Positions 4,449-27,511 of a DNA stretch of 32,000 nucleotides are shown piece by piece; the first letter of the stretch is position 1; each line of letters opens with the position of its first letter. The stretch spans positions 3,630,001-3,662,000 of the forward strand of contig NC_010814.1 of NCBI RefSeq assembly GCF_000020385.1, in the 5' to 3' direction. The stretch is from Trichlorobacter lovleyi SZ. Its GTDB lineage: Bacteria > Desulfobacterota > Desulfuromonadia > Geobacterales > Pseudopelobacteraceae. The notes beneath the pieces were generated by a model that searched no databases, was not told the DNA's origin, and saw only the letters and a list, made by a program, of their open reading frames with translations. The translations under genes and the position numbers were made by a program.

Positions 4449-5390
4449 TCACACCCCTGGTTTGAGTTGTCGTTGTAATGCCTCTAGCACCCGATGAACA
4501 GGTATCTCCGCCATGCAATGCCGTTCAAGCAGACATTGGGGCTGTCCGCACGGCATTTGCGGACAGGTTTCTGACCAGATTGTTTCACCTTGGCCATAGA
4601 GGCATACCTCTCTTGGGTCGGTCGGACCAAACAGCCCAACTATCCTTTTACCCAGGGCAAGTGCGAGGTGCAGCCCCAGGCTGTCCTGACTCAGGATCAC
4701 CCGGCACGAAGAGATCCACTCAGTATAGCGATGAAGATTGTCCAGGCCCTGTTGCCACGACACACGCAATCCTGATGATTCCAACGCTTTCGCAACAGCT
4801 AGCCAGTGTTCCTCAGGCATCCGCTTGGTCGGCCATTTGGAGCCGACCATATGGTTCAGGCCCACATCAAAAAGGAGTTCATTATTTGGGTAATAGCCCA
4901 AGACATAAGGCTGCTCCTTCCATTCCAGCCCCAACATCTCGATCAGGTTCTGCTGCCAGGGGCGGCGTTCAGGATCAGGTGTGCTTTTGTCGCGTATATA
5001 TTGCAGAAAACCTTGGCCCTTTTCATAAGCCTGGCAGCTGCCTGTCATGGCATCAAACCGGAACCCGTAACGCGCCCAGGCATCAACCATATCTGCCAGT
5101 GCGCAGACTCCCGGATGTTTTTCCAGATTAATGACGATATCGAACTGCTCCCGCATCAGCTGAAAAGGCACAAAGGCATCCACCACCAACACACGGTCTA
5201 AAAGCGGATTGCCGGAAATGAGCGGGACGGCAGCCTCGTCGACCAGCCAGGTGATTTTCGCCTCCGGGTGCCGCTCCTTGAGTGCCGTCAGCAATGGAGT
5301 CGTTCTGAGAACGTCTCCCAAACTGGTCACCTTGCCGACTTCCGGGTCGAGAGTTTCAGAATGCCCGAGTTTTATCAGCAGAATCTTCAT
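4449..5390 (-). CDS. Glycosyltransferase family 9 (heptosyltransferase-like)
   Basis: MKILLIKLGHS...LGDVLRTTPLLTALKERHPEAKITWLV at the N-terminus and DSLGLHLALALGKRIVGLFGPTDP near the C-terminus are the two GT9 hallmarks. The start shows an ATGA overlap with the upstream radical SAM gene. Confidence 0.75.
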   Translation of the reverse strand: MKILLIKLGHSETLDPEVGKVTSLGDVLRTTPLLTALKERHPEAKITWLVDEAAVPLISGNPLLDRVLVVDAFVPFQLMREQFDIVINLEKHPGVCALADMVDAWARYGFRFDAMTGSCQAYEKGQGFLQYIRDKSTPDPERRPWQQNLIEMLGLEWKEQPYVLGYYPNNELLFDVGLNHMVGSKWPTKRMPEEHWLAVAKALESSGLRVSWQQGLDNLHRYTEWISSCRVILSQDSLGLHLALALGKRIVGLFGPTDPREVCLYGQGETIWSETCPQMPCGQPQCLLERHCMAEIPVHRVLEALQRQLKPGV

Positions 5391-6328
5391 TCACGTTCGC
5401 CTTCGATATCCAGGACATCTACGGTCGTATGGCCGAATTGCTGGAAGCGGTTTGTCTTCACCTTTATATCACAAGGGTTGCAGTCCCCATAAAAGGAACA
5501 GGCACGGAATTCATCAATCGCATCCGCATCCAGATCGGGGTCGAGGATGTGAGCAAAGGGATCTCGGCCCTGGAATAGATCCGCGTGGCACTTGTAGACC
5601 CAGCCGGCAGGGTCGACGATCAGCTCGCTGGTCCGGCAGCGGCACGAGCGAAACGGTTTTCCCAGGACGGCGCCGGGATACTTGAATTCACCATACAGCG
5701 TACCGTTCCATTCTCCCAGGAATTCCTTGGTCCGGAAATCGACCCCCAGCTTCAGACAACGTTCCTGCGTCTCGAGGATGTGGCGGCGAATCTCTTCGTC
5801 AGGGTGAAGGATGCCGTAGATGCCCACCCGAAAGCCAGCTTCGACCAGGCGGAAATAGTTGCCCACCAACTCGTCAATATCGTTCTGGCCCGGATGATAG
5901 CTCACACGGATCGGCGCATAGGGGGCATCACGTAAGAACCGCCAGACCGGCACATTCGCGATAAACGAGTCAACATCAAAGGTCAGATTCGTCATCAAAT
6001 CGCACCTGAGTTCCGGTTTTGCTTCATTGACAAGCCGAACAAAGGAGTTCGACAGTGTCGGCTCCCCTCCCTGCAGAGTCAGTGGCAGGTCAGCCCTCAG
6101 CTCCAACCGGTTGGCAGCCAGAATCCACTCATCAGCGGTCATCTGGCGCTTTAGCATGTTTTTTCTGGAACCGCCATCATGGAGGTTTATACAGTAGTAG
6201 CAGTGCAGGTTACAGGCCATGGTCAGAAAAAAAGCGACGTAATTATGCCGTTCGCCAGGGCGGATGGCCCCGAGCGTACTGTGGGACGAACTATCTGGCC
6301 AGGACAGACTTTCAGAAATCAATGACAT
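5387..6328 (-). CDS. Radical SAM enzyme with C-terminal SPASM/twitch-type auxiliary cluster motif
   Basis: CX3CX2C at FFLTMACNLHCYYC; LTLQGGEPTL (GGE motif). C-terminal CRTSELIVDPAGWVYKC fits CX9-15GX4C, followed by CSFYGDCNPC. ATG 6328 is preceded by AGAGGA. Confidence 0.8.
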   Translation of the reverse strand: MSLISESLSWPDSSSHSTLGAIRPGERHNYVAFFLTMACNLHCYYCINLHDGGSRKNMLKRQMTADEWILAANRLELRADLPLTLQGGEPTLSNSFVRLVNEAKPELRCDLMTNLTFDVDSFIANVPVWRFLRDAPYAPIRVSYHPGQNDIDELVGNYFRLVEAGFRVGIYGILHPDEEIRRHILETQERCLKLGVDFRTKEFLGEWNGTLYGEFKYPGAVLGKPFRSCRCRTSELIVDPAGWVYKCHADLFQGRDPFAHILDPDLDADAIDEFRACSFYGDCNPCDIKVKTNRFQQFGHTTVDVLDIEGERE

Positions 6329-6343
6329 GACACATCCTCTTGC

Positions 6344-8875
6344 TCAACTGCTGTGTCTGGAAGCACCATGAAGCAGTGCTTTATACAGCGCCTGCAGATA
6401 AGCATGACCATGGAGCAAATCAGGTTCCAAGTGGTTACCTTCAGCCCATTCATTCCAGGCCTTGATAAAAACGATTCGATCAGCAGGGTCTTTTCTTTGC
6501 TCAACCTTCCGCAGGGCATCTTCCAGCATCTCTCCAAACAACTCGGGCGTGGAGCCTTGCAGCACAAAACCGTTACTGCCGCTACGTGGTGTATTATCCC
6601 AGTTAGGCACTACCAGTGGGTATTCATTATCTGACAACTGGTACTGTTTCAAATACAGCACCAAGTCCTCATAGCGAGACACCTTGGGAACGGAATTGCC
6701 AGAAAGGGGAATGACAGGCACCAGAGGTGCATTCATGGAGACAAACGGCGCATTATCAACACAGGCCTGGCAGCCATACGTTTCAGGATTGCGCACGTTA
6801 TGAGCCACAAAGTATATACCGCCCAAACCGGCTTCCTGGGCTAATTGCTGCCAATATGAGGTAAAGAGACAAGCGTCCGGCAGATTGGTTGGAGCATAAA
6901 TTACAAACAGTGGCCTGTCATGCACTCTTAGATAACGCGGATCCCGGAATGCCGGCAGTAGTGTATCGAAGTGCGCCTTATAATCCTCAAGCCCAGGGTA
7001 AGTCTGTTCTATCAACACACGATCCGGTGCCCCGTGCCATATACCTGACCAGGTTTGGTTAGCCCAACCAAGACAGAATGGGAAGTCAGGCTGTCCTGTC
7101 CGCACGACCTCATCAAATGGTCGCTCCAAAAGCTGGTGTCCGGCAAACCAGTAATGCCAGTAACAGAAGGCGTCAACACCATAACGACGCGCCATTTCAG
7201 CTTGTTCTAGCCGTATTTCCGGCACTCTAAGGTCATAATAACCCAAATCAGCAGGAACATGAGGCTGATAATGTCCTTCAAAGAGAGGGACCGCTTTACC
7301 TACATTGGTCCATTCCGTGAAACCTTTGCCCCACCATCTGTCGTTTTCGGGGATCGGATGAAACTGGGGGAGATAGAAAGCGATTGCTAACGCACGCTTC
7401 CCCAAAGGCAGGATTGTTCCTGAATGTACAACATCACGGACATCAATCTGCTCTTTTAGATGCTTTGTCAGATTATTATGAAACAGTGCCGTAAGGTTAC
7501 CCATATCAACAATCGGGTCCCTGAGTCTCACATCAAGCAATGTTTGCAAGAAGGCATGATGCTCAACAGAATCGGGTGTATGCACAGCAACCTGCTTGAA
7601 GTCATCTTCCAGAAAGGTCCCCCAATTAGAGATGGCTGAAAAGGCTACCGTATCGACTCCCAAACTTTTACCAAGCTCTACAAAACCACCCATCTCTTTG
7701 AAATTGCTGACCTGCACAATCATACGCAGTACAATCTGCATATGCTTTCTATATTCCGACTTGGCAAGCCCCTCCAAATTGGATAACAAACGCGAAAAAA
7801 CACCACCTTTTCGAATTATTTCATAACTTTCTGGGGTTACAGCATCAACGGAAATCGCAATCAGGAATATCTTGTCAACAACTCTCGAAAGGACGGCAGA
7901 AAAACTCCCCTCTGTCAGCAACATGCCATTGGTGTCAATTCTGATTCGGATTGTTGGATATCTGTTCCAATCAAATTCAGCAAAAATCCTGCGATATACT
8001 GAGCTGGCGAGAGGATCACCGGCACCAGAAAACCAAAGTTCCTCAACTCCCAAGGGTATTGCATCCAAAACAGCCATATCTTGGGAATAGGTTGTTGCAG
8101 CCTCCTGAGGCGAAGCTACATAAAGCGATGTCCGACACGAAGGACACGCCAGATTACAGGTAGGATCATCATCAAAGGAAACAATACGAGGCACTCTACC
8201 CTCAAGGGCATCTTCAACCATAAAGTTGAGCCCCCTCGAGATAAGCTCGGAAGAGCAGAATAATTCGTAGGGGATCTGATAGGCGGTACTGTTCCGATAT
8301 TCTCCTAGACCTATCTTCTGCATGCCTGCGCATTTACGCTTGTCACAGTAGCGATAACTACCGTCTTTAATCGATTGGCGCAAGACACGAGCCACAGGAG
8401 AATGCCATATTTCCTCTAAAGACTGCTGGCGGATATTCCCTATGGAAAAGGGAAGATAACAGCAAGGAGACAAATCACCATTGGTGTGGAGTTCAAGATA
8501 AAGAAACGGATTGGGACAGATAATACCTGAAAATTCGTCACCATATGAATAGGTCGGTATGTTCACAAGCGATGGAATCGCAGCTTCACCGCCAGGACAT
8601 CCCCCATCAACCCCCAAGTAAGCATCAAAATAAGCCTGCCATCCCGGCGGAGGGGATGGAGACACATCTACAGCCAGTGACTGTAAAAACGTCTTTTCCG
8701 CCAAATCTGTAACTACCGTATTCGGGCACAGATCAATGCCTTGCGCATCATGCAATAGCGAGATCAAGGCAGCAGCGTGCTTCTTGATAAGTGTCAGTGT
8801 ACGATGATCTCGGCAGGTTCTAATAGCATTAGCCATACGGGACATCACTAGTTGAAGATAGTGGTCTGTATTCAT
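6344..8875 (-). CDS. Fusion protein: radical SAM domain (with an upstream SPASM/twitch-like Cys motif) plus C-terminal WbsX-type glycosyltransferase-like domain
   Basis: Radical SAM core: DDDPTCNLACPSCR (CX3CX2C), WFSGAGDPL, RIDTNGMLL, ISVDAVTPESYEIIRKGG. Upstream of the core: CPNPFLYLELHTNGDLSPCC (CX12GX4C), then GNIRQQSLEEIWHSP and YCDKRKC. C-terminal half: AFYLPQFHPIPENDRWWGKGFTEWTNV...YGVDAFCYWHYWF...AWNEWAEGN, the WbsX-family signature. I chose the start at ATG 8875; the track start 8881 is a TTG two codons upstream. Confidence 0.75.
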   Translation of the reverse strand: MNTDHYLQLVMSRMANAIRTCRDHRTLTLIKKHAAALISLLHDAQGIDLCPNTVVTDLAEKTFLQSLAVDVSPSPPPGWQAYFDAYLGVDGGCPGGEAAIPSLVNIPTYSYGDEFSGIICPNPFLYLELHTNGDLSPCCYLPFSIGNIRQQSLEEIWHSPVARVLRQSIKDGSYRYCDKRKCAGMQKIGLGEYRNSTAYQIPYELFCSSELISRGLNFMVEDALEGRVPRIVSFDDDPTCNLACPSCRTSLYVASPQEAATTYSQDMAVLDAIPLGVEELWFSGAGDPLASSVYRRIFAEFDWNRYPTIRIRIDTNGMLLTEGSFSAVLSRVVDKIFLIAISVDAVTPESYEIIRKGGVFSRLLSNLEGLAKSEYRKHMQIVLRMIVQVSNFKEMGGFVELGKSLGVDTVAFSAISNWGTFLEDDFKQVAVHTPDSVEHHAFLQTLLDVRLRDPIVDMGNLTALFHNNLTKHLKEQIDVRDVVHSGTILPLGKRALAIAFYLPQFHPIPENDRWWGKGFTEWTNVGKAVPLFEGHYQPHVPADLGYYDLRVPEIRLEQAEMARRYGVDAFCYWHYWFAGHQLLERPFDEVVRTGQPDFPFCLGWANQTWSGIWHGAPDRVLIEQTYPGLEDYKAHFDTLLPAFRDPRYLRVHDRPLFVIYAPTNLPDACLFTSYWQQLAQEAGLGGIYFVAHNVRNPETYGCQACVDNAPFVSMNAPLVPVIPLSGNSVPKVSRYEDLVLYLKQYQLSDNEYPLVVPNWDNTPRSGSNGFVLQGSTPELFGEMLEDALRKVEQRKDPADRIVFIKAWNEWAEGNHLEPDLLHGHAYLQALYKALLHGASRHSS

Positions 8876-8895
8876 GATCAATCTCTTTTACTCAC

Positions 8896-10929
8896 TTAAT
8901 AAGCAGGCCTACCGACAGCAAGGTCAACCAGCAAGTTTATGCTTTTTTGCGGGTCACCAAGCGCTCTGGCCAGAAATGTCTTTCTAGCCTCCTGCACTTC
9001 CGATGAAAACCACCATTCCTCTGGAGCATCGGCAACGTGAACCAGAAACTCCGCTGCTGCCTGAGGATCTGTCTGGCAAATCCCAACAGTGATCAGAGGA
9101 TCAAAAAAATCCCTGTAGTACACATCCAAAAAACCAAGGGGGGCTGGAAACAGCAAGATGGTTGGAATATTCATACTGAGTGACTCAAGGTGCGTTGTGG
9201 CCAGATATGCAACCACAACCAAACGAGATGCAGCCATGACCTCCTTACAGCTTCTGGAAAGATCATCTCTGGTTGAATCTACCAGTAAATCTTCTAGAAA
9301 CGTCATATCATCCTGGCAGTTTTTCCAGTTACTACCATAGCCGCTCTTGGGATATCCACGGTAATGAATGTATTTTCTAACTCCCACTTCCAGAGAGTCT
9401 AGAAACTTTCTCTTAAACTGAATACCGTGGATAGCATGGAAGCCATTACCTGCCAAAGCAGAACTGCCACTCAGCAGTGAATCCTTCATGAAAGCCAAAC
9501 CGCTTACATACAGAATCCGATGTTCATAATGCGACCGGGGCTGCCGTTCTTCTCCAAAATCATAGAGTGAACCGCCTTGGACACCATTTCTGATTAATAT
9601 GCTATGGGCTCCATGAGCCATGTAGATATCGCAGAGTTTTGACCAGCGCGGCAATGCAGACGCAACAAAAGGATGCTCAGAATAATTATGTTCATGATAG
9701 ATTGTCTTGACGCCCTGTTGCATGAGGATAGCCAGCACAATCGGTTCGATTGCATCACCAATCCACAGCTCACTGACCACATATTTCAAACGACGGTATA
9801 ATGACATTTGAGTCATTATTGAACCGTACACAGCTCTCCAATCCTCAACAAATGTACGGGGAAACAACGCAGTGAAGGTAGAAAGGAAAAAATTGCTGAA
9901 ACGGTCCAGCTCAACCGCCGGTTGTGCAAGAAATGTCCGTTTTTCAAAATCAATCGTGGTACCACAGGTAAAAAGACGGTCATATCCAATCCGCTGAATC
10001 TCATATCCCGAACGGGTTGCCAGCTGCTGAGACCACTGTTCCTTGAACCACGAGCCAAGAATCCCCACAATAGGCTGATAGGGGGTTGGTGGAGTCGGAG
10101 AGGCTTGAACATAATCCGAGTGATACGCCTGTTGATAGAATGGGAAACGACCGGAATGGAAATAGCTACAATACATGCTGAATAGCTGTTCTTGCCCAAA
10201 ATCACGATCAGACAGAAACCAGTGCAGGTCATCATAGTCAACTGGCATATAAAAACATGCTGGGTCAAGCATAACAGCATGAACATCAGACACCGCCAAT
10301 GCAGATTCTGCAGCGACAAAGTGGTCATAGACTAATGTCAGATGCCGGTCAAGACTCATTCCAAGAGCCCTGCGCCAGAATTCTATCCCCAACTGGCTGC
10401 CATGAATGGCATCCAAACGTTCAGCAAGCAGAGGCATTACCTGCTCGGTAACAGCAGAAAGATATGATGCGGATGCCTTCAGACCCTCTGGATGAGTACG
10501 CTCTGTCGCAACCTCCTGAAAAGACCCACCCCCTAAAATTCTACGTAAGCATAATCCTGTGAACGCATCAGGGACGAGATACTCATCAGCACCAGCACCA
10601 TGTTGCAACGCCAAGGCCGACGGCAGAAAAAATCTCCTTCTTTTTGCCAATGTACCAGTCTTATCTACTGCTACCGACCATCCAAGTACCTCAAGACTTT
10701 TCAATGCCTCTGGGTTCCCATGACGAGCAGCCTCTTTAAAAAGGGCATAAGCTTGAGCAAATTTGCGCTCACGCACCATCATACATGCCATGAAATTTGC
10801 GTGATTCGGACAGTTCAAGGCTGTCAACGCAGTAGTGTTGCTGAACACGCTTGCGTCAGCCTTGGCATAGTTTCCGCCAGCAAGTAGATTAGATATATGA
10901 TCAGACAAATCATCCATAAACGATCTCAT
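8896..10929 (-). CDS. Large uncharacterised protein: N-terminal Sel1/TPR-like repeat, C-terminal putative transferase domain
   Basis: 677-aa ORF. The N-terminus has a Sel1-like repeat, FAQAYALFKEAARHGNPEALKSLEVLGW. The C-terminal part has YHEHNYSEHP...ILYVSG...IHYRGYPKS...RLVVVAYLATTHLESLSMNIPTILLF. This pattern recalls O-antigen-region putative transferases (LIC12162-type) and TagF-like folds. The coding call is solid; the function is a guess. Confidence 0.35.
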   Translation of the reverse strand: MRSFMDDLSDHISNLLAGGNYAKADASVFSNTTALTALNCPNHANFMACMMVRERKFAQAYALFKEAARHGNPEALKSLEVLGWSVAVDKTGTLAKRRRFFLPSALALQHGAGADEYLVPDAFTGLCLRRILGGGSFQEVATERTHPEGLKASASYLSAVTEQVMPLLAERLDAIHGSQLGIEFWRRALGMSLDRHLTLVYDHFVAAESALAVSDVHAVMLDPACFYMPVDYDDLHWFLSDRDFGQEQLFSMYCSYFHSGRFPFYQQAYHSDYVQASPTPPTPYQPIVGILGSWFKEQWSQQLATRSGYEIQRIGYDRLFTCGTTIDFEKRTFLAQPAVELDRFSNFFLSTFTALFPRTFVEDWRAVYGSIMTQMSLYRRLKYVVSELWIGDAIEPIVLAILMQQGVKTIYHEHNYSEHPFVASALPRWSKLCDIYMAHGAHSILIRNGVQGGSLYDFGEERQPRSHYEHRILYVSGLAFMKDSLLSGSSALAGNGFHAIHGIQFKRKFLDSLEVGVRKYIHYRGYPKSGYGSNWKNCQDDMTFLEDLLVDSTRDDLSRSCKEVMAASRLVVVAYLATTHLESLSMNIPTILLFPAPLGFLDVYYRDFFDPLITVGICQTDPQAAAEFLVHVADAPEEWWFSSEVQEARKTFLARALGDPQKSINLLVDLAVGRPAY

Positions 10930-10949
10930 CAGTCAGCGGGTAGTATTCA

Positions 10950-13172
10950 TTAGATAAGCGCCTTCCAGTCGGCAATCGTTGGAGTAGCGCATACATCCAA
11001 ACGTTGTCGTACTGCTTTAGAAAAGCTCGGGGACCTCCAGCATCGTGCCAGATTTACAGCAGAGGCCAGACAGTCAGGCTCATCTGGCAAGCACTGGGCA
11101 ATCAGTATATTCTTTTCCAGCAATCCTTCTGTAACGGCAAGATATGATGCAGACTGAAATAACAGGCAAAAAGCGTTCGAAACGGGGTACACCTGCAACA
11201 GGCGATACACTCGTTCAAATGCCTGCGCAAATTCTCCATTTCTAAAAAGAAGCTGACACATCAGCAATTCATCTTCAGGATGCAGCACCGGCTGCCGCAC
11301 TACGATTTCCAATGCTTGGCTCCAACCACCCAACGCAAGTAATGTCTTAGCGCAGTTCCATCTCAGATCGCTGCCTTGCTCTACTGCTTTTTGGCTTTCT
11401 TCAAGCCGATCCGACACCCTTGCTGAAATGCTACCAACGGCAAAAGGGTCCAACGGCATACTGCCTATTGCGGTATGTAACCGCTTTAGTTCGTTGTCAT
11501 CAAAGACATGGGCGCTTCTCCCCCATAACCCAAGTAGCCGCACCGGCAACTGTGAGGTCAGCCAGTCGGTCGCGCCAGCCTCATTGACGATGCGCTGCCA
11601 GTCATCTCCGGCAAGGCGAAAAAATGCCGCCAGATATTCGCAGCCGAGCAGCCATGGATCAGGTGTGAACTCTGCAGGGTATATGTGAACAATCACACTC
11701 CAACCTGCATAGAGCTGAAACAGAGCAACATCAGGATAGGCGTCTGCCACAGCGGTTCCCAGCATCGGAATCAGATCACCTTGCCTGAGCGCCTTGACAA
11801 CGCCATCCCATGCCGCCTGCGCTCCGGTTGTTTCCTGGAGGCCATGCAGCGGTATCATGCGCCATGCAGGCTGTCTTTTCCCTTCTTCTAAAAGAATGTA
11901 GAGGTGATCCAAAAACAAGGGGAGAGATCTGCCAGCCGCCGGATACTTACGGTTACGCCTTTCAAGCAGCCGTTCACAGCATGCGTCTGGTGAGGCAAGG
12001 ATTTTTGAGACAAGCTCAAGCAGTTGTCGAAGACTGAATACAGTGTAACCAATCTCTGTCTCCTGTGGCATAGGTGCCGCATCCTGCTCATCGAAGCGTA
12101 TCGCTGGTTGCAACGTTGCCATTGCAAACACTTCCGAGGAACTCCCTCTATGGTGTATAAGTAGTGCCCCGTTTCGGTAGTCTTCGATATAGGAGGGCCC
12201 AAGGCTAAGTACAAATTGCGGGTTACTGGAAAAACGCTCAATCAATTCGCGATGGCACGCCTCATCTCCCGGAAAAGGCCGAAATATCAGACGGCGACCT
12301 GGAAACGACTCTAACAGGGATTCAACCGTTCTGATTGCATTGGAGCGTGCCTTGTCACTCTCGAGTTTCCAGTAGGAAAAATTATATATGATATCGACTG
12401 GTTGAGTGTCTGACATCCTGGAAATGAAGCTGTCGATTTTCGTATTTCCAAAAGGGACCAGTGTTAGCGTTTCTGAACGATGGTCGATAATTTCGCGAGG
12501 GAAAAGATCTATCAGAAGCTCTTCAAAGTTGGGGGCCAGGATATCCGGTTCAAAACTGGGACAAAGTAAATAGTCAAACATGAGCCCCGCGCCGTAAAAC
12601 ATGTACCCATAACGAGCAAGAATATCCGTGCCGTGAGGCTGCAGAATCCGCAACGTATTGGGAGGCAACCGACGCATCTTCTCCGCTGCATAGTCCAAGG
12701 CTATTACGGCATCAAGAAAATCCAGACGCACCAGCTTTTCCCCGGGCGGAGCCCATATCCAAGGGTAACCACTGAAGGCAGTATCCAGAAAACGATCTGG
12801 CGGAGTTAGGTGGATATCAGACATAACAACAAACAGCTGATATCGTTCATCATAACGCAACAGATCCGCCCAAGCGGTTTGCATCTGATTGAACATCGGG
12901 CCACTATATTCGTGGATAAGCAGCCCTATTGCTTTCTTGCCGCCGCAGGCCTGTTTTGCCAAAGAGAGCTGGAGATTAAAGAGCTCCTCAACCCAGTCAG
13001 CAGTGCCCTTTGAACCATCACAAAATCCCTCTAAAACCGCTGAGTGCTCAAATCCGAGTGTCTTCAGACACGAAAGATATGGCCCCAATACAGCAAGCTC
13101 AGGTTTACCATAAAGCTTGCCAGCAAGAAGCGATTGATCTGTAGCATAGATAGAGGAGTATGATCTTTTCAT
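10950..13172 (-). CDS. Large uncharacterised protein: N-terminal putative TagF-like (CDP-activated phospho-)transferase region, C-terminal helical-repeat region
   Basis: I chose the start at ATG 13172 (MKRSYSS), preceded by GGTGG and 11 nt after the upstream stop. The 13229 extension would overlap the kinase gene by 44 nt. LVPFGNTKID...VDIIYNFSYWK...RRLIFRPFPGD...YIEDYRNGALLIHHRGSSSEVFAMATLQPAIRF resembles the G-P-x-D / ILYAPTWR / K-HP / LITDYSS-FD layout of glycerophosphotransferases. The last ~150 aa are TPR-like helices. Function is inferred only. Confidence 0.35.
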   Translation of the reverse strand: MKRSYSSIYATDQSLLAGKLYGKPELAVLGPYLSCLKTLGFEHSAVLEGFCDGSKGTADWVEELFNLQLSLAKQACGGKKAIGLLIHEYSGPMFNQMQTAWADLLRYDERYQLFVVMSDIHLTPPDRFLDTAFSGYPWIWAPPGEKLVRLDFLDAVIALDYAAEKMRRLPPNTLRILQPHGTDILARYGYMFYGAGLMFDYLLCPSFEPDILAPNFEELLIDLFPREIIDHRSETLTLVPFGNTKIDSFISRMSDTQPVDIIYNFSYWKLESDKARSNAIRTVESLLESFPGRRLIFRPFPGDEACHRELIERFSSNPQFVLSLGPSYIEDYRNGALLIHHRGSSSEVFAMATLQPAIRFDEQDAAPMPQETEIGYTVFSLRQLLELVSKILASPDACCERLLERRNRKYPAAGRSLPLFLDHLYILLEEGKRQPAWRMIPLHGLQETTGAQAAWDGVVKALRQGDLIPMLGTAVADAYPDVALFQLYAGWSVIVHIYPAEFTPDPWLLGCEYLAAFFRLAGDDWQRIVNEAGATDWLTSQLPVRLLGLWGRSAHVFDDNELKRLHTAIGSMPLDPFAVGSISARVSDRLEESQKAVEQGSDLRWNCAKTLLALGGWSQALEIVVRQPVLHPEDELLMCQLLFRNGEFAQAFERVYRLLQVYPVSNAFCLLFQSASYLAVTEGLLEKNILIAQCLPDEPDCLASAVNLARCWRSPSFSKAVRQRLDVCATPTIADWKALI

Positions 13173-13185
13173 GACGCCACCACTA

Positions 13186-13752
13186 TCAGGAAGCTGTCGG
13201 CTTAGCCAGCTGTACCAGTCTAGGCACAAGCTGCTGAAGTATCAATTCTATCGTATCCTGAACAGAAGTAACACCGTCTGAAACATCAATACAAAGCTCT
13301 GGGGCAGTGGGCTCCTCAGCAGGAATATCCAGACCCAGTACATTTGAAATCTCGCCCAGGTCATACCGTGTATAGAGTTGCTTGGTCTGATCCCGTCTCC
13401 GACGGGTCGCTTCATCAGATTTCAGGTAGACCTCAAAATAACCGGGCAATGTTTGCCGATGGTATTCCTGCACCTCTCTGATGGCGGTATTGGCAGCAAC
13501 AATTATGATAATCCCCTGGTCAGCCAGCATAGCCGCCAGGCGACCGATACGCAGGGCATTTTCAGTCCGGCTCTTTAGGTCATAGTGGCTTGTTTCCATG
13601 CCAAGTACCACCCGCATGGCATCACCATCCAAGATGACGGCAGCATGGCCCACATTCTGCAATCGCTCTTTGAGTGCCCAGGCAACCGTTGTCTTTCCTG
13701 CATTTGGAAGACCGATGATCCAGATTATCAATTGGGTGCTCACAGTCTGCAT
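13186..13752 (-). CDS. cysC: APS-kinase-fold kinase; by context more likely a Cj1415-type cytidine diphosphoramidate 3'-kinase than a sulfate-assimilation CysC
   Basis: P-loop IIGLPNAGKTTVAWAL, ILDGDAMR, and FEVYLKSDEATRRRRD.TKQLY are the adenylylsulfate kinase hallmarks. No ATP sulfurylase or sulfotransferase is present in the window. The gene sits 2.3 kb downstream of the Cj1418/1417/1416-like genes. It starts at ATG 13752 and overlaps the upstream gene by 13 nt. Confidence 0.7.
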   Translation of the reverse strand: MQTVSTQLIIWIIGLPNAGKTTVAWALKERLQNVGHAAVILDGDAMRVVLGMETSHYDLKSRTENALRIGRLAAMLADQGIIIIVAANTAIREVQEYHRQTLPGYFEVYLKSDEATRRRRDQTKQLYTRYDLGEISNVLGLDIPAEEPTAPELCIDVSDGVTSVQDTIELILQQLVPRLVQLAKPTAS

Positions 13753-14774
13753 AGTTCTAAAAATTCAGAAAATTCAATCCAATCGAGATATTCACGGTCA
13801 CTACGGTGCAACAGTTTACCAGAAAGTTCGGGAAAAGCCGCCTGTAAGCCATCTCGAAATGTTGCGTCATTTTGTATAAAGCGTTGCGTTGTTTCAGCGT
13901 CCTTACAAACTATTCCCTCTATGTACAATTTTGTATCGTCATTTCTCAATCCAGATGCATTTCTGCGGAGCAGTATGATAGATGAGTGTGAACGATAATA
14001 ATCTGCAAAGCTGTCCAAAGAAAGATAGCAAACCTGTTTTCCGGTCCCAAGCGCAAGACTACCTTGTCCATGAACATTAAAGGAAATGTCAAAAACACCA
14101 CAGACTGCCCGGCTGAATAACAAGAAAAAATCTTCTGGCGAACGAACTGCATATAAAAGTGTTACACCCTTTGCAAAGGCGACTGATACCCGAGAAGGGA
14201 TAGACTTCTCATCACTGTAAGTTTGAATACGACAATTCCCATGCAGTTGTTTTGCCATAAGATTAAAAAATGGCGATATATCGAATCCCTCCCATGCAAC
14301 CCCCTGAACTGTGAGTTCGGGCCTGGCCATGGGTATTTTTGCCATATCCAGCAAGGTTGCACAGCACGCAATACCTTCAATACAACCAAAAAGAGTTTGG
14401 CCATGCTCATAATAGATTGGCGTAAGGTCATCGATAGTCTGCAAGGCAGCCCATTTGGAAAGATTGCTAGAAAAATCATCAGGATGATGGATCAGCTCCT
14501 GATACAACCGTCCCACCTCTGACAGGTCACCACTCGATAATGCCTGCAACATCCAGATGTAACAAGAAATATCCTGAGAATAACGGGCATGCATAAACCA
14601 ATCATAAGCCTGTTGCATGGTTCGGAAATCGTATATTTTCTTGATGGGAGGAGAGGTTGCTATAGCCCCAAATTCCAAATATGAAACAACTTCTCCACCA
14701 TCATTATAATGGTTATTCACCAGGGTCCTCCACGACGAATATTCCTTCTGGCAACTTTTTCGAATACGAATCAT
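13740..14774 (-). CDS. Hypothetical protein (no recognisable family)
   Basis: 344-aa ORF in operon phase with no motif I can place. The start is uncertain: ATG 14774 overlaps the upstream gene by 62 nt, and the next in-frame ATG is at 14618 (MQQAYDWF). Confidence 0.45.
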   Translation of the reverse strand: MIRIRKSCQKEYSSWRTLVNNHYNDGGEVVSYLEFGAIATSPPIKKIYDFRTMQQAYDWFMHARYSQDISCYIWMLQALSSGDLSEVGRLYQELIHHPDDFSSNLSKWAALQTIDDLTPIYYEHGQTLFGCIEGIACCATLLDMAKIPMARPELTVQGVAWEGFDISPFFNLMAKQLHGNCRIQTYSDEKSIPSRVSVAFAKGVTLLYAVRSPEDFFLLFSRAVCGVFDISFNVHGQGSLALGTGKQVCYLSLDSFADYYRSHSSIILLRRNASGLRNDDTKLYIEGIVCKDAETTQRFIQNDATFRDGLQAAFPELSGKLLHRSDREYLDWIEFSEFLELCRL

Positions 14775-15489
14775 TCAATCGCTTTATAGCCACCAGTCTG
14801 AGAAATGGGTGCATTACAAAATATGGTTTGCATTGTGGCGCAGAGATATTCTTTTGAGGCTTCGGGGATAATTTGCAGTGCCAACGTCGTAGCAGGCGCT
14901 CTAACACCATTGATCTTACATACGGATCAAGAATAGCATCAACAAAATGAGACTGATCTTGGTTAAGGTATATATTCACTCGAAAGGCAGCTTCTTCAAG
15001 GATTGGGCCATCATCAAGCTCCGCGCCCATGAAAAATGCTGTTCCATAAAGCGTCCCGTCCTCAAGCAAACTATAATAAAATGTTGTACTTCCTCGATAT
15101 GCTGGAAGCCGTCCTGGGTGTACATGGATAAACCGCTTGCCAGAGGACAAAATCTTGTCACGTAGTATGCCGCCACCGGTAAAAATCCATGTCTCAAGAT
15201 CAAAACCGTCCAGATACTGCAGCAGTTCATCATCATTTATATTGTTCGCCCCCACAGTATCCAGAGGTATCCCATGGCGCTTGCAATATTTTTCAGCTGT
15301 CTCTGTTACATCAAAATATGACGTATCATAGTGATATCGCATTGACTCAGCACAAATATCCTGAAAATGCAAAATAGAATGAGAAAGCATAACAACACGT
15401 ACGGGATGAACAGCAGCGCGCTCAAAGGCCGCTAGATAAGCAAGGCTTCTCATGCCGGGAAACAAAATCATGCCAAAGGAATTATCCAT
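14713..15489 (-). CDS. Formyltransferase-fold protein (Formyl_trans_N-like; candidate sugar N-formyltransferase)
   Basis: FIHVHPGRLPAYRGSTTFYYSLLEDGTLYGTAFFMGAELDDGPIL matches the formyltransferase core (H-P-S-LP-YRG ... D.G.D.GPI). I chose the start at ATG 15489 (MDNSFGMILFPG), preceded by AAGGTG with 5-nt spacing and overlapping the upstream stop by 8 nt. Confidence 0.6.
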   Translation of the reverse strand: MDNSFGMILFPGMRSLAYLAAFERAAVHPVRVVMLSHSILHFQDICAESMRYHYDTSYFDVTETAEKYCKRHGIPLDTVGANNINDDELLQYLDGFDLETWIFTGGGILRDKILSSGKRFIHVHPGRLPAYRGSTTFYYSLLEDGTLYGTAFFMGAELDDGPILEEAAFRVNIYLNQDQSHFVDAILDPYVRSMVLERLLRRWHCKLSPKPQKNISAPQCKPYFVMHPFLRLVAIKRLNDSYSKKLPEGIFVVEDPGE

Positions 15490-16024
15490 GCAACACCTTA
15501 GCAACGGATTCCTGCTCAAGCACAAGGACTGCCCTCACTAGCGAAACATCGTAGATATCCCCTATCAAGACATGATCTATCACCTTCAATGCAGAGTTCA
15601 GTTCGTTCAAGGACAATGTTCTTGAAAAACGCACCAATAATATAGCTGCAAAAAGAGCCAGGTCGTCTGCTATCGCGTATGTCTCGCCTACCTTGTGAAA
15701 GCAACTATCGTACTGAGCCGCAAGCCGTCCGAATAACGCAAACTTCTTTTGCAACATGTAGACAAGCTCAGAATCGGATGTCCCTGTAATCCGCTCATGA
15801 CGCCACAATGTTGTAAGAAGCTGAATAAGCGTTCTTGCGGCATCAGATTCTTCATGTGCATCTACATAGCTATCAATCTGCTTTAGCGCCGTATGAGCAT
15901 CTGGCTTACGAGCCCCAAGGGAGTGGTATCGTTGTTCCCAAAAGCAAGAGATACCATCCGCTATATCAAGCAGTGGAATTTCGCCCTCGTTTTTAGTGTA
16001 AGAGCCGACCGAGCTCACTACCAT
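15482..16024 (-). CDS. Hypothetical, predicted all-helical protein (no recognisable family)
   Basis: About 180-aa ORF in operon phase. ATG 16024 overlaps the upstream TAG (ATGGTAG). The track start at 16030 is a TTG two codons upstream. Confidence 0.45.
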   Translation of the reverse strand: MVVSSVGSYTKNEGEIPLLDIADGISCFWEQRYHSLGARKPDAHTALKQIDSYVDAHEESDAARTLIQLLTTLWRHERITGTSDSELVYMLQKKFALFGRLAAQYDSCFHKVGETYAIADDLALFAAILLVRFSRTLSLNELNSALKVIDHVLIGDIYDVSLVRAVLVLEQESVAKVLHG

Positions 16025-16779
16025 CTCCAATCATGGTGCCATACTGTTTTACAGCTATCCACCGAGCAAACCATTTCTTCATATATTTCACGGTCAGTCT
16101 GTACATCAACTTCACACCAACGACCGTTTACAGAACAAACCTGCACAGTGACATCCTGCTGTAAAGCATGCCTGATCCACGAAGTCATATCCAAACACGC
16201 TTGTTCTTTTGCTGAAAGCTTCAGATATATGTCAAAAAACTGTTTCCACCCCTGGGGTTTAAATAACAAAAGTCCCATGTACTGTGCTTCGACTTCTTCA
16301 AGCGTCTTTGGTTTGCCACCAATCTCCTTCAAAATACCACATTCCTCTTGGAAGGTTTCAGCATCAGCTATCGGATCTTCGCCCCTCAAACGCCAGAGTT
16401 CCAGCCAAAGCCGGTCAGCAGTAATTGCAATTGAGCCGTCGCAGGCGATAAGCGCACGGACATGGTCCGGGTGGTAAACAATATCTGAGTAACTGATGAT
16501 AGTTGGCCCTGAAGCTAGCCAATCCGTTGCACAAACAAGTGAAGAGGCCATATTGGTCTCTGCCCAGCGTGTATTGTCCACTGTAGAAAAATCACCATAC
16601 AGCAACTCTCCGCGATAACCCCTTACCACTAGTATTTCAGTAACTCCCGCTGCACGCAAACTTGCAAGTTGCCACTGCAGAAGATTCTTACCTGCAAGCA
16701 TAGTACAACATTTGGGGCGTCCCTCCGTATCACTCCCCATTCTGGAACCACGACCTGCAGCAAGTATAACGGCTTTCAC
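16018..16779 (-). CDS. Nucleotidyltransferase (MobA/LicC-like NTP transferase); candidate Cj1416-type CTP:phosphoglutamine cytidylyltransferase
   Basis: N-terminal KAVILAAGRGSRMG signature (GxG[ST]R). 253 aa. The GTG start forms a GTGA overlap with the upstream amidotransferase-like gene. Confidence 0.7.
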   Translation of the reverse strand: MKAVILAAGRGSRMGSDTEGRPKCCTMLAGKNLLQWQLASLRAAGVTEILVVRGYRGELLYGDFSTVDNTRWAETNMASSLVCATDWLASGPTIISYSDIVYHPDHVRALIACDGSIAITADRLWLELWRLRGEDPIADAETFQEECGILKEIGGKPKTLEEVEAQYMGLLLFKPQGWKQFFDIYLKLSAKEQACLDMTSWIRHALQQDVTVQVCSVNGRWCEVDVQTDREIYEEMVCSVDSCKTVWHHDWRW

Positions 16780-17417
16780 TCGTTAGACCTCCTAAAATGA
16801 CTCGCAAAGAGTGCTTGATCAAACGACTTAAATGACTGTTCACGCTCTGGATGCCACATGATACCAAGCAGCTTCATATCATGTGCATAAACCGCCTCAA
16901 TTGCTCCATCAACCGCTGACACAGCCCATACCTTTAATGGCGAAGCCTCATCGGGTATTGCCTGCCAAGCATGATACGAATTGACTTGTTGAGACGGCAA
17001 CAAGTGCGGCAATGGCCGTCCTTCAAACACACGCAAAGCGTGGTTCATCCCAATGTGAAGATCTTGGGATACAGGCGACAGAACACCACCAAGCTGCTGC
17101 ACCATGAACTGCATTCCACGGCAAATACCAATGACCGGATGGTTCCTTGCCATCATCCACGAAAGTGCTAACGATTCGCTTTCGTCCCTCTCAATCGACG
17201 CCCCAATATCGTTTCCGCCGGTTAGAACCAGTCCACAAGGTTTCAGTTCATCTAGCAGGCGCCGCGCCATAACAACATTGTTGGGAAGCAGCAGCGGCAT
17301 GCAGTCCGGAAGAGCGCAACCTAAAAAACTCCACCAGTCGTGCGCAATGCAATCTCGCACCTCAGCATGCATACCCTCTGCTGCTACTCTCATGGATATA
17401 GCCAAAAGCGACTTCAT
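16776..17417 (-). CDS. Class I glutamine amidotransferase / peptidase C26-like hydrolase; candidate Cj1417-type gamma-glutamyl-CDP-amidate hydrolase
   Basis: LVLTGGNDIG, nucleophile elbow PVIGICRGMQFMV, and His-Glu pair in GIMWHPE. 213 aa. The start shows an ATGA overlap with the upstream kinase-like gene. Confidence 0.7.
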   Translation of the reverse strand: MKSLLAISMRVAAEGMHAEVRDCIAHDWWSFLGCALPDCMPLLLPNNVVMARRLLDELKPCGLVLTGGNDIGASIERDESESLALSWMMARNHPVIGICRGMQFMVQQLGGVLSPVSQDLHIGMNHALRVFEGRPLPHLLPSQQVNSYHAWQAIPDEASPLKVWAVSAVDGAIEAVYAHDMKLLGIMWHPEREQSFKSFDQALFASHFRRSNE

Positions 17418-19849: not shown

Positions 19850-20811
19850 CTAATCACACATCCCATCACCTGCAACAGTGTGATTAAGTCTCCATACACC
19901 ATTCTCTTTGCCCCAGATATGCGGCGAACGCCAACTGTCTATAACTTCATGAAAATATTCTTCGCTAATGCCGCAGTACTCAAGAAAAGTCTTGTAATAC
20001 TGTTTTGGAAACTCGCCATCAAACCGTTTTACGAGCTGCACCCCCTCCTCGCGGGTTAAATGGCCATCCCGTATTTCGTGAGCCGTATCCGAGGTGGCGC
20101 GACCAATACCGAATTTTATGAATGAGAGATAATAGTGAAATCCATCCAGTTGGTCGTCAATTGAAGCATATTTTGAATACGTTCCTTCATTTCTTTCAGA
20201 TCTGGCAGAAAAACCTGTATGCTCAGCTGCATAGTAGTAATTTTCCTGCGGTATCCACTTATGGTAGTAAGAAAAGAAATGTATCTTCAAATTTGCTTTA
20301 TCCATTTCTTCAAGAGGTGGGGCAAGGTAAGGGACAAGATCATTCTGGTCAACACCATAATGAACCATGTCTTCTGGCGGAAGGTTTGAAAAGTAGTGCG
20401 TTTTCTGATCAGAGCTATAGTTCCTGTCGGGCCTGTATGCGTTGGTCATGTCACCACCATATTCGACCTCTCCGTTTTCTCCATACATGATTAACGGTAT
20501 CTTATGCTGCACTGCAATCTGGAGAGGAAAGTTATGCTGCCCAAAAATAAATGGCTGAAACGGATCTCCCAGTATTTCAAAAGAAAGCTTGGTCAACTTT
20601 CTATGAACAATGCCGTTGGGCGTCCCGAGGACATTATCAAGTCCACCGACATGCACCATATTCTGAAAGTTTCTCCAGCCAATGTCGGTATACAAATGAG
20701 GAGCCCATGTAACCGTAAGCACTTTCATGCCATATTTATACTTCAGCATATGGGCTACGAAAGCGCTATCCTTACCACCGCTGGCCGGCACCATGAAGTG
20801 GTTGCGGTTTT
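19850..20811 (-). pseudogene. N-acetyl sugar amidotransferase (WbuX/WbpG/PseA family), C-terminal ~320 codons, separated from its N-terminus by the IS element
   Basis: PP-loop MVPASGGKDSAFVAHMLKYKYGMKVLTVTWAP followed by GDPFQPFIFGQ and PLIMYGENGEVEYGG. The track ORF 19850..20875 borrows its first 21 codons (MRCCMEPLLSKGSAHCLYSCL) from antisense IS sequence. Confidence 0.75.
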
Positions 20812-20841
20812 TGAGACATGAGTATAAGCAATGAGCCGATC
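20812..20841 (+). repeat. IS left terminal inverted repeat
   Basis: TGAGACAT...ATAAGCAAT...CCGATC blocks are shared with the reverse complement of 22010..22048. Confidence 0.7.
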
Positions 20842-20861
20842 CCTTTGAAAGGAGAGGTTCC

Positions 20862-21167
20862 ATGCAGCACCGCACCCGTTACAGTTCAGAATTTAAGGCC
20901 AAGGTAGCCTTGGCAGCTTTAACCGAATCCAAGACGCTGGCCGAGCTCGCCAGCGAGTACAAAGTTCACCCAAGCCAGATCAGCAACTGGAAACAGGAAC
21001 TCGTTGAAAACGCCTCAGACCTCTTCGGCAAAGGGAAGAAGCAAGAGGTCAATCACGACGCCGAAGTAGCCGAGCTGCACCGCGTCATCGGCAAGCTCAA
21101 GGCGGAAAACGATTTTTTGTCAAATCTGCCCGGTCTGAGCTTGACCGGGCGCAGAAACAGAAAGTGA
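20862..21167 (+). CDS. IS3-family transposase OrfA (helix-turn-helix)
   Basis: MQHRTRYSSEFKAKVALAALTESKTLAELASEYKVHPSQISNWKQEL plus a leucine-zipper-like tail (AELHRVIGKLKAENDFL). GGAGAGG lies 5 nt upstream of the ATG. Confidence 0.85.
   Translation: MQHRTRYSSEFKAKVALAALTESKTLAELASEYKVHPSQISNWKQELVENASDLFGKGKKQEVNHDAEVAELHRVIGKLKAENDFLSNLPGLSLTGRRNRK
21113..21119 (+). promoter_or_regulatory. Candidate programmed -1 ribosomal frameshift heptamer T TTT TTG joining orfA to orfB
   Basis: gat ttt ttg in the orfA frame. The -1 frame is open from here (FFVKSARSELDRAQKQKVIATGHPDVSVERRCELLGVARASYY) through the DDE domain, giving the usual OrfAB fusion layout. Confidence 0.55.
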
Positions 21168-21991: not shown

Positions 21992-22009
21992 GGCCAGAAA
22001 CGACAACCA

Positions 22010-22048
22010 GATCGGTATATTGCTTATTCTACCCATCAGGATGTCTCA
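22010..22048 (+). repeat. IS right terminal inverted repeat
   Basis: Its reverse complement begins TGAGACAT and shares the ATAAGCAAT and CCGATC blocks with the left end. It carries about 9 extra nt relative to the left repeat. Confidence 0.7.
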
Positions 22049-22052
22049 CAAA

Positions 22053-22304
22053 TCACGACCAGCTAACCAACACTTCAAAACCTCCATCGGTTCTTTTATA
22101 CCTCTTGCACAAATCTACTAGTTCCCGCTCCCGCTGTGTCCAGTCAAAAACAGTATTTTTCTTGACGGAAAAGTTGCAGGCGGAACAAACCCCTTCTTCG
22201 TCAAAGGTAATGCGGGGGCGTTGATTGGACATAGTGCATTTTTTGCAAAACTTTATCTCTGCAGGCAGATTATAGCGCTGCAGAACATTCTTATTCTCAA
22301 TCAT
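22053..22304 (-). pseudogene. N-acetyl sugar amidotransferase (WbuX/WbpG/PseA family), N-terminal fragment with Zn-ribbon
   Basis: MIENKNVLQRYNLPAEIKFCKKCTMSNQRPRITFDEEGVCSACNF...FDWTQRERELVDLCKRYK is the characteristic N-terminus of this family. The frame ends at TGA 22055..22053, 4 nt before the IS right end. The start overlaps the hisH-like stop (TAATG). Confidence 0.75.
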
Positions 22305-24534: not shown

Positions 24535-24538
24535 GAGC

Positions 24539-27510: not shown

Positions 27511-27511
27511 T

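Follow-up and report, generated by a model that had tools for sequence, protein, structure and literature searches.

The 32,000-nucleotide stretch of Trichlorobacter lovleyi SZ examined in the present study (contig NC_010814.1, positions 3,630,001 to 3,662,000; hereafter the window) carries two large adjacent genes, encoding proteins designated A (open reading frame (ORF) 10950-13172) and B (ORF 8896-10929), directly downstream of genes resembling the Campylobacter jejuni pathway for a cytidine diphosphate (CDP)-linked phosphoramidate donor. A was found to be a divergent relative of TagF-type CDP-activated phosphotransferases, belonging to an unannotated, teichoic-acid-polymerase-like family that, in the contexts read, is tied to one variant of the donor pathway, and we regard it as a well-supported candidate for a phosphoramidate-type transferase. 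B adds a member to a named, uncharacterised family whose name predicts only 'transferase', and is a partner transferase of A that is not itself linked to the donor pathway. We consider it probable that A is the group transferase of a phosphoramidate pathway variant other than that of Campylobacter, with B acting as a different transferase on the same glycan. To our knowledge, the transfer step is the sole part of O-methyl-phosphoramidate (MeOPN) biosynthesis not reconstituted in vitro, and the Campylobacter transferases are known only genetically. Comparison loci and comparison proteins are given L- and P-numbers, respectively, and the features of the two proteins (lengths in amino acids, aa) are as follows:

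10950-13172, minus strand: A, 740 aa, ATG at 13172 and stop at 10950, candidate phosphoramidate-type transferase
11823-12950, minus strand: GT-B catalytic core of A (aa 75-450), two Rossmann-like domains
12633-12635, minus strand: codon of H180 of A (LQPHGTD), invariant and aligned with TagF H444
10953-11822, minus strand: C-terminal helical region of A (aa 451-740)
8896-10929, minus strand: B, 677 aa, LIC12162-family transferase (TIGR04331 / PF27859)
8920-9411, minus strand: C-terminal region of B (aa 507-670), similar to the subdomain of A-type and TagF-like enzymes that binds the nucleotide

Read mechanically from an upstream TTG, the ORF of A would encode 759 aa, and the gene callers of sibling contigs give 740 aa. 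A previous inspection of the letters without database searches (the sequence-only reading) had put A at 741 aa, which is corrected here, and B at 677 aa, which stands; B is called as 673 aa elsewhere.

Searches of Pfam, NCBIfam and the PDB sequences assigned A to no family, the only signal being a sub-threshold one to ANAPC3 (Pfam, E ≤ 0.1), and a word-index search retrieved only three homologues, with identities of 57-100%. Yet an exhaustive HMMER search with a three-sequence A profile recovered 334 cluster representatives at E ≤ 1e-3, a number that falls to 139 when E ≤ 1e-10 is required; residues ~100-450 of A make up the conserved region, and the family proteins range from 590 to 740 aa in length. 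With a large remote family in existence, A is not an orphan, and that label, given to both proteins by the sequence-only reading, applies to A only loosely (no Pfam, NCBIfam or PDB match) and does not apply to B, which falls into TIGR04331. Comparison of A and B by BLASTP indicated no similarity between them, and neither protein had a tblastn match among 72,556 plasmids. Rex/CoA-binding-like PDB matches obtained with profiles of A relatives were rejected, as they come from extra domains. A few relatives of A (e.g. P0211) gave weak, sub-threshold matches to TIGR04396 'surface carbohydrate biosynthesis protein'. A literature search found no paper on the A family, on the formyltransferase-type donor module described below or on LIC12162 biochemistry.

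The relationship to TagF-type enzymes emerges from the more distant members of the family. Pfam Glyphos_transf (PF04464) was matched by 18 of the 80 more distant A-profile hits listed (best E 7.9e-19), and three proteins, P0196, P0209 and P0210, exceed the PF04464 gathering score over the same region that is matched by the A profile, with library-wide E-values to that profile of 7.5e-20, 1.1e-15 and 1.6e-15, respectively. The TagF-type references used were Glyphos_transf PF04464, Staphylococcus epidermidis TagF (3L7I), TarL (8VA1) and the CriT domain of Bcs3 (8A0C), and a canonical Glyphos_transf ORF (159 bits) from the metagenome contig JACCDX011804203.1 (L017) served to recover the aligned TagF, TarL and Bcs3 PDB sequences. 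Using hhalign, the A core aligned with the four canonical proteins (TagF, TarL, Bcs3 and Glyphos_transf) at a probability of 72% (E 3.4e-5) over 216 collinear columns, whereas with one canonical Glyphos_transf sequence as the only partner the A family gave a non-significant probability of 0.7%, with the register correct. Significance of A against TagF-like proteins was reached only with the four-member canonical alignment, and the support from hhalign is moderate (probabilities of 72-91%). The motifs paired by hhalign were:

RILQPH180G of A with IQTWH444G of TagF
FGNTKID of A with IGYPRND of TagF
IIYNFS of A with IMYAPT of TagF
IFR298PF300P of A with LLR582MH584Y of TagF (KLHP in other TagF-family members)
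LLIHHRGSS of A with CLITDYSS of TagF

A thus shares with TagF-type enzymes a collinear set of elements, namely (W/P)HG with the catalytic histidine, G-Y-P-(R/K)-x-D, a hydrophobic-Y-x-(P/L/F)-(T/S) strand, a basic residue before HP/FP and the strand-loop position of TDYSS. It differs in that YAPT(W/F)R is replaced by IIYN(F)S or IIYHLS in the A family, TDYSS by H-R-G-S-S with basic residues in place of the TagF aspartate, and the H584 position is phenylalanine or variable. A further carries an additional C-terminus of ~290 aa with helical/TPR character, and is linked to a phosphoramidate-donor module rather than to tagD/tarI-type genes. The motif strings quoted in the sequence-only reading are all present in A and B, and its comparison to TagF holds for A on motif order, hhalign, PF04464-passing relatives and the GT-B model. 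The A family is best regarded as forming its own, new branch within the TagF superfamily, with a presumed new donor.

An AlphaFold2 model of the A core (aa 75-450), based on a 43-sequence alignment, reached a predicted local distance difference test (pLDDT) score of 92.3 and a predicted template-modelling score (pTM) of 0.90, and shows a GT-B fold of two Rossmann-like domains, the fold of TagF-type enzymes, superimposable in the model on TagF. Only GT-B-type proteins were returned when this model was compared to the PDB with Foldseek, including BshA, PimB', MurG and, at ranks 25-42, the TagF entries 3L7M, 3L7J and 3L7I (E 3.2e-9 to 1.1e-8, TMq 0.52-0.57). As an aside, 3L7M is titled 'TagF, H548A', yet the residue changed relative to wild-type 3L7I is 584 (LLRMHY to LLRMAY), making it H584A. 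The conserved motifs of A comprise P-H180-G, G242-x-x-K245-x-D247, IIYNFS (aa 261-266), F-R298-P-F300-P, SY328IEDY332 and H341-R342-G-S-S. Residue H180 of the QPHG motif, which aligns with the catalytic base H444 in the WHG motif of S. epidermidis TagF, is invariant in both the 43-sequence core alignment and a 20-sequence full-length alignment. Near-invariant residues in the core alignment include G242, K245, D247, R298 (≥90% of the 43 sequences and invariant in the 20), Y328, Y332 and G414, and in the full-length alignment H341 is invariant and R342 near-invariant. Beyond the core, a conserved helical segment (W507, W537) is followed by TPR-like repeats. A full-length AlphaFold model based on a three-sequence alignment was too poor overall (pLDDT 50.5), with helices at aa 630-730 modelled at pLDDT ~90. 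These helices, the ANAPC3 signal and TPR Pfam families in up to 6 of 69 A relatives bear out the TPR-like C-terminus noticed previously, which is presumably an interaction or acceptor-recognition module.

The donor genes upstream of A, also recognised in the sequence-only reading, proved to be real and occupy the following positions:

13186-13752, minus strand: Cj1415-like APS-kinase-fold protein (APS_kinase 1.6e-29; PRK05541 229 bits against a cutoff of 127)
13740-14774, minus strand: 344-aa protein without family match
14713-15525, minus strand: Formyl_trans_N-like protein (Pfam 1.1e-05, slightly under cutoff)
15482-16030, minus strand: 182-aa protein of no known family, always preceding the formyltransferase-like gene
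16018-16779, minus strand: Cj1416-like nucleotidyltransferase (NTP_transf_3 1.8e-17), position kept in all loci
16776-17417, minus strand: Cj1417-like class-I amidotransferase / Peptidase_C26 (Peptidase_C26 1.8e-22; GATase)
17414-19801, minus strand: Cj1418-like enzyme using phosphoenolpyruvate (PEP) (PRK05849 995.6 bits, full length; PPDK_N and PEP-utilizers)

By similarity to their C. jejuni counterparts, the Cj1418-like protein is a putative L-glutamine kinase, the Cj1416-like protein a putative cytidine triphosphate (CTP):phosphoglutamine cytidylyltransferase, the Cj1417-like protein a putative gamma-glutamyl-CDP-amidate hydrolase (best NCBIfam match NF045546, 81.7 bits, under the cutoff of 250) and the Cj1415-like protein a putative cytidine diphosphoramidate 3'-kinase. 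A and B lie back to back immediately after the APS-kinase-fold gene, as previously described, with 13 nucleotides (nt) between the stop of that gene and the start of A, 20 nt between A and B, and 14 nt between B and the next gene. Given these short gaps and the lack of any terminator signal above chance around A and B, the neighbourhood looks like an operon.

A locus search with a narrow A alignment gave three genome loci and a metagenome scan with a B alignment gave one locus. Donor genes adjoin the A-family gene in all nine readable contexts (the window and eight further loci), so that the check for co-occurrence with Cj1418 homologues proposed in the sequence-only reading comes out in favour of A:

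the window, together with its sibling contigs
an uncultured Geobacter contig (L001), A 57% identical
the Deltaproteobacteria metagenome-assembled genome (MAG) contig JANXYI010000345.1 (L011), A 35% identical
Fibrobacterota (L005), B absent, the APS-kinase-like gene being followed immediately by one that encodes 1326 aa, in which the A core occurs twice in tandem (BLASTP E 6e-40 and 2e-26)
Shewanella putrefaciens (L013), A homologue VEE63451.1, module beside a Maf-like gene, flgT and flgO
Desulfamplus magnetovallimortis
three metagenome contigs, one with a YAPT-type relative directly after the APS-kinase-like gene

In the minimal module of L005, A is the sole transferase-like protein. Between the A gene and the APS-kinase-like gene of L005, L014 and L018 there is either no other gene or only a split 344-aa-like one. 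The formyltransferase-like gene and its small partner are present in all A-family contexts long enough to judge; the former is kept in L005, L013, L014, L015 and L018, and the two are fused in L001 (416 aa). The 344-aa protein is frequent and not universal in the module, being 37% identical in Shewanella and absent from L005. These extra genes occupy 13740-16030 in the window, 7131-9414 in L001, 13771-15094 in L005 and 11906-14684 in L013. None of the three has a C. jejuni counterpart, and in the window they stand in place of the Cj1419/Cj1420-type methyltransferases, which suggests a donor or transferred group chemically unlike MeOPN, e.g. an N-acylated one. The sugar pathways beside A also differ, with nonulosonic-acid genes in the window and deoxythymidine diphosphate (dTDP)-amino-C-methyl-deoxyhexose genes in Shewanella and Fibrobacterota, and the acceptor of A would differ by lineage. 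In S. putrefaciens, the A-type module (L013 18781-21779) is located next to a Maf-like (MptE-like) gene and flgT/flgO, and the modification may there be located on the flagellin glycan. A 2022 review calls the glutamine kinase 'C. jejuni-specific' (PMC9561416); scoring of candidate homologues of the Cj1418-like protein left at least 3,561 with E ≤ 1e-20, from sources including Desulfovibrionales, Fibrobacterota and Lentisphaerae.

Protein B matches TIGR04331 'LIC12162 family transferase' at E 1.4e-161 (539.1 bits against a cutoff of 225) over residues 102-664 and nearly the full model (2-581 of 585), and PF27859 is recorded for its homologues. Like the family member of Herbaspirillum, it is clustered with nonulosonic-acid genes. 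B and its close relatives differ from the family in an extra N-terminal segment of ~100 aa with a Sel1-like hairpin, and B stands out further by its association, as neighbour or fusion partner, with an A-type enzyme and a radical-SAM/WbsX protein. The Sel1-like repeat module seen in the sequence-only reading was not substantiated, as a Pfam search of B gave no match at E ≤ 0.1 and the segment amounts to a single hairpin found in the three closest relatives only and missing from fused or divergent B homologues.

The gene order A, B, radical-SAM/WbsX of the window is repeated in L001, L010 and L011. In other bacteria the proteins are fused, with A and B in one protein in P0128, A, B and SPASM/radical SAM in P0130/P0280 of Fundidesulfovibrio butyratiphilus (1423-1559 aa), and A, B and radical-SAM/WbsX in a single 1947-aa ORF of L011 (6993-12836, plus strand), where the order matches that of the corresponding separate genes in the window. 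These fusions show that A, B and the radical-SAM/WbsX protein work on one glycan. The C-terminus of B is, moreover, related to A: in hhalign, B 507-670 aligned with A 284-423 (probability 88%, E 3e-6) and the B family with YAPT-type A relatives (91%, E 1e-6), reproducing the pairing of the last two motifs proposed in the sequence-only reading, with IHY-R524-G-Y526-P of B against LIF-R298-P-F300-P of A, and VVVAYLATTHLES...NIPTILLF of B against LLIHHRGSSSEVF...LQPAIRF of A. Elsewhere the resemblance ends. B against the canonical TagF proteins was not significant in hhalign, its TagF-like part is limited to the C-terminal 140-150 residues, the TagF H584 position is Y526, and its invariant E413-H414 (YHEHNY), which are candidate catalytic residues, did not align with TagF H444 in the profile comparisons; the earlier likening to TagF therefore extends to the C-terminal part of B only.

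These observations bear on the view that both A and B are phosphoramidate (or other phospho-group) transferases serving different acceptor sites, in the manner of C. jejuni Cj1421/Cj1422, as the sequence-only reading had it. B does follow A directly in the window, L010 and L011, the A-B fusion occurs in three lineages, and the similarity of the B C-terminus to the nucleotide-binding subdomain of A-type enzymes (88-91%) fits such a role. In L017, where a B homologue 29% identical to that of the window has no Cj1418, Cj1415 or A-like gene within 10 kb, its neighbours are an amidotransferase, HisF/HisH, a cytidine monophosphate (CMP)-synthetase, GT2, GT11, phosphonate-biosynthesis genes and a canonical Glyphos_transf, such that transfer of a phosphorus-containing group is conceivable. 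That phosphonate pathway is, however, already served by its own canonical Glyphos_transf, and the B family occurs apart from the donor genes both there and in Herbaspirillum seropedicae AU14040, where an LIC12162-family gene directly follows neuABC and a 'surface carbohydrate biosynthesis protein' gene (PMC6679464). This is the occurrence outside the donor pathway that the sequence-only reading had named as speaking against its proposal, and for B it does so. Conversely, B is absent from four A loci read on both sides of A (L005, L013, L014 and L015), and the two proteins are not paralogues, their comparison by BLASTP having shown no similarity, nor is B significantly like canonical TagF. We consider it unlikely that both are phosphoramidate transferases. 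While A stands as a candidate, B is probably not the phosphoramidate transferase, and more probably transfers nonulosonic acid or another CMP- or CDP-activated unit to the glycan on which A acts.

Two observations were made in passing on the B-containing loci. The phosphonate set of L017 (9998-16610) consists of a cytidylyltransferase-PEP mutase fusion, a thiamine pyrophosphate (TPP)-dependent decarboxylase and an Fe-alcohol dehydrogenase, followed by the canonical Glyphos_transf, and the glycan of this organism may be a nonulosonic acid decorated with phosphonate. The Herbaspirillum pair of 'surface carbohydrate biosynthesis protein' and LIC12162 genes mirrors the A-B pair, and TIGR04396 has the same wording; an 'A-like plus LIC12162' two-gene unit may be general in nonulosonic-acid loci.

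Several observations on homology and on genomic context weigh against the assignment of A to phosphoramidate transfer. A itself falls under the PF04464 gathering threshold (22.1 bits), with membership being only transitive via P0196, P0209 and P0210, and PDB sequence searches with A-relative profiles gave no TagF match. The top Foldseek matches of the A core are not TagF but uridine diphosphate N-acetylglucosamine (UDP-GlcNAc) 2-epimerases (E 3e-11, TM 0.5-0.6), and 24 other GT-B chains, mostly such epimerases, rank above TagF, so that the fold alone does not specify the chemistry of A. The position of the second TagF histidine, H584, is occupied by F300 in A and varies among family members (FRPxP). 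Thus, of the catalytic histidine pair proposed as a check in the sequence-only reading, only the base (H444, here H180) is kept. The linkage sample comprises few loci, nine contexts reached from A and five reached from Cj1418 homologues, and the formyltransferase-like gene, whose role is unassigned, means that the transferred group may not be plain phosphoramidate. The epimerase matches would suit A being an ordinary TagF-like or GT-B enzyme with CDP-glycerol, CDP-ribitol, a CMP-nonulosonic acid or a UDP-sugar as donor, adjacent to the donor genes through shared surface-glycan islands, and this view can also appeal to the various GT-B glycosyltransferases among the matches, to the bona fide Glyphos_transf members among distant A relatives, and to the nonulosonic-acid pathway of the window, which needs a transferase. 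If it were correct, the finding would shrink to a family annotation. We regard it as distinctly unlikely, considering that A adjoins the donor genes across phyla despite differing neighbouring sugar pathways, abuts or nearly abuts the APS-kinase-like gene in the three loci named above, and is the only transferase of the minimal module, which without it would have none. In addition, the scanned ORFs of the window yielded no gene for making CDP-glycerol or CDP-ribitol.

The remaining points against A as the phosphoramidate transferase come from a second type of donor locus. Four loci reached from Cj1418 homologues (L004, L006, L019 and L020, from Maridesulfovibrio, Desulfonatronum, Lentisphaerae and Desulfovibrio sulfodismutans) show the Campylobacter arrangement, with a methyltransferase encoded within the module, and none of them contains an A-like ORF at E ≤ 1 (a 552-aa neighbour in L006 was considered as A-like and rejected on comparison). 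In three of the four, sulfotransferase-family genes adjoin the module, weakly so in L006, encoding the following proteins:

L019, 15129-16313: Sulfotransfer_1/3 family
L020, 5681-9090: Sulfotransfer_1/3 family
L006, 17691-18803: Sulfotransfer_1/3 family

Such proteins are a plausible second class of candidate phosphoramidate transferases for a 3'-phosphorylated donor resembling 3'-phosphoadenosine 5'-phosphosulfate (PAPS), from which it follows that A may not be homologous to Cj1421/Cj1422. The sulfotransferase-fold proteins of Lentisphaerae and D. sulfodismutans share with A the genomic position relative to the donor module, but have an unrelated fold (P-loop-like rather than GT-B), never co-occur with A in the loci read, and are likewise uncharacterised. 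The pathway therefore appears to come in two or more variants that differ in gene content and in candidate transferase.

One could go further and suppose that the true transferase of the window is a sulfotransferase-fold enzyme encoded elsewhere or the 344-aa protein, with A engaged in glycan priming, polymerisation or scaffolding. The donor does bear a PAPS-like 3'-phosphate, which Taylor and Raushel are said to have established for Cj1415, sulfotransferase-family genes flank the module in the three loci just listed, and the 344-aa protein is kept in several loci with its function unassigned. We nevertheless find this very unlikely, as no sulfotransferase-family match was present among the window ORFs scanned or the called genes of the other A-type loci, and L005 lacks the 344-aa protein yet has the full donor set and a double A. 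The retention in A of the TagF catalytic histidine and nucleotide-binding motifs further argues that A is probably an active enzyme. The 344-aa protein was also considered as sulfotransferase-like, and gave no match at E ≤ 1.

With respect to Campylobacter, the MeOPN transferases Cj1421/Cj1422 of C. jejuni are described as defined genetically in two reports (PMC9561416 and PMC7901785, citing McNally et al. 2007), and the Campylobacter transferases compared share 47-67% mutual identity (PMC7901785). The analogy drawn in the sequence-only reading with the two large dedicated transferases of C. jejuni consequently breaks down, as A and B have no BLASTP similarity. The A family is comparable to the Campylobacter transferases in size (590-740 aa versus 592-642 aa) and, like Cj1421/Cj1422, A is encoded next to Cj1415-Cj1418-type genes, which applies to B in the window and not in L017. 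Duplication takes the form of a tandem double A core in Fibrobacterota and of two paralogous genes in C. jejuni. None of the 150 best A-profile matches was an AT-rich, Campylobacter-like protein set in a C. jejuni-type context, and Campylobacter is not among the listed matches of either the Cj1418-homologue search or the A-profile search. As a methyltransferase-type locus, that of C. jejuni belongs to a class whose representatives elsewhere are without A-like genes. No run of G or C of at least seven bases occurs within 8896-13172, and hence no phase variation of the Campylobacter kind. Owing to the different locus type, the lack of poly-G tracts and the sulfotransferase-like neighbours in Campylobacter-type loci, non-homology of A to Cj1421/Cj1422 is a real possibility. 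A literature search on the fold of Cj1421/Cj1422 and on LIC12162 biochemistry gave nothing useful beyond the Herbaspirillum gene order.

If A is the group transferase of this pathway variant, the steps can be envisaged as follows. Judging by homology, the Cj1418, Cj1416, Cj1417 and Cj1415 homologues would make cytidine diphosphoramidate and its 3'-phosphate, and the formyltransferase-like protein and its 182-aa partner may further modify the donor. From the linkage to cytidine diphosphoramidate genes, we infer that A uses a CDP-activated donor and releases CMP, consistent with the chemistry expected of TagF-type enzymes, which move the beta-phosphoryl group of a CDP-linked donor onto a hydroxyl and set CMP free. 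If A works as TagF does, the cytidine nucleotide would be bound by its C-terminal Rossmann domain through G-x-x-K-x-D, IIYNFS, F-R298-P and H341-R342-G-S-S, and H180 of the N-terminal domain would deprotonate a sugar hydroxyl. Attack of this hydroxyl on the beta-phosphorus would then transfer the phosphoramidate group, with CMP or 3'-phospho-CMP as the product released, while the helical/TPR-like C-terminus may recognise the acceptor or a partner protein. The donor's identity, the chemistry, the acceptor and the substrate of B are thus all proposed here from context and similarity. A transferred phosphoramidate provides no hydroxyl from which to extend, and A therefore cannot be a polymerase. 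The H341-R342 pair replacing 'TD' of TagF in A-proper and IIYHLS-type members might, speculatively, suit a 3'-phosphorylated ribose; against this idea, an APS-kinase-like gene is likewise the neighbour of YAPT-type relatives in which 'TD' is retained.

More tentatively, the A family could represent a branch of the TagF superfamily re-tooled for transfer of a phosphorus-nitrogen (P-N) group, possibly N-modified, from a 3'-phosphorylated cytidine donor, with the HR pair as the adaptation, the decoration being widespread (Geobacter, Shewanella, Desulfobacterota and Fibrobacterota) and the enzyme class non-homologous to the sulfotransferase-like one of methyltransferase-type loci. If true, P-N decoration of surface or flagellar glycans would be widespread in environmental bacteria and no Campylobacter speciality, and new phosphorus-nitrogen glycan modifications are predicted on the flagellin or lipopolysaccharide of environmental bacteria. 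The A family, unannotated and beside donor genes in every context read, offers concrete candidates for the biochemistry of phosphoramidate transfer, including in the tractable Shewanella and Geobacter, for which the present analysis supplies a confident model of the A core and a predicted catalytic histidine, H180. Functional context is also gained for the LIC12162 family and the radical-SAM/WbsX fusion protein.

Nearly all genes of the window are on the minus strand, and those flanking the A-B-donor region are:

6344-8881, minus strand: SPASM/radical-SAM-WbsX fusion protein, 845 aa (Pfam SPASM, Radical_SAM, Glyco_tran_WbsX 4e-134)
5387-6328: second radical SAM gene, 313 aa
below 6344, further genes: GT9-family protein, methyltransferases, TPR protein
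19850-20875, minus strand: N-acetyl-sugar amidotransferase, interrupted by an insertion sequence (IS)
22304-29933, minus strand: nonulosonic-acid set of NeuB, GNAT, AP_endonuc_2-family (xylose isomerase-like TIM barrel), DegT, B12-radical SAM, CMP-sugar synthetase and HisF/HisH-like proteins

The 845-aa protein has an unusual domain order, with SPASM/twitch (aa 122-184) preceding the radical-SAM core (aa 241-379) and the WbsX glycosyltransferase domain (aa 500-832). An IS3-family element of ~1.27 kb (window 20794-22065; ORFs 20862-21167 and 21164-21991, plus strand) lies within the N-acetyl-sugar amidotransferase (PseA/WbpG-like) gene. The sibling contigs L007 and L008 are without this element and encode an amidotransferase of 392 aa, compared to a 341-aa remnant in the window. 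The IS3 flanks are 99.97-100% identical to L007/L008, and the alignments overlap by four bases at the junction, consistent with a target-site duplication. The acetamidino branch of the nonulosonic-acid pathway may therefore have been inactivated in strain SZ through the IS3 insertion.

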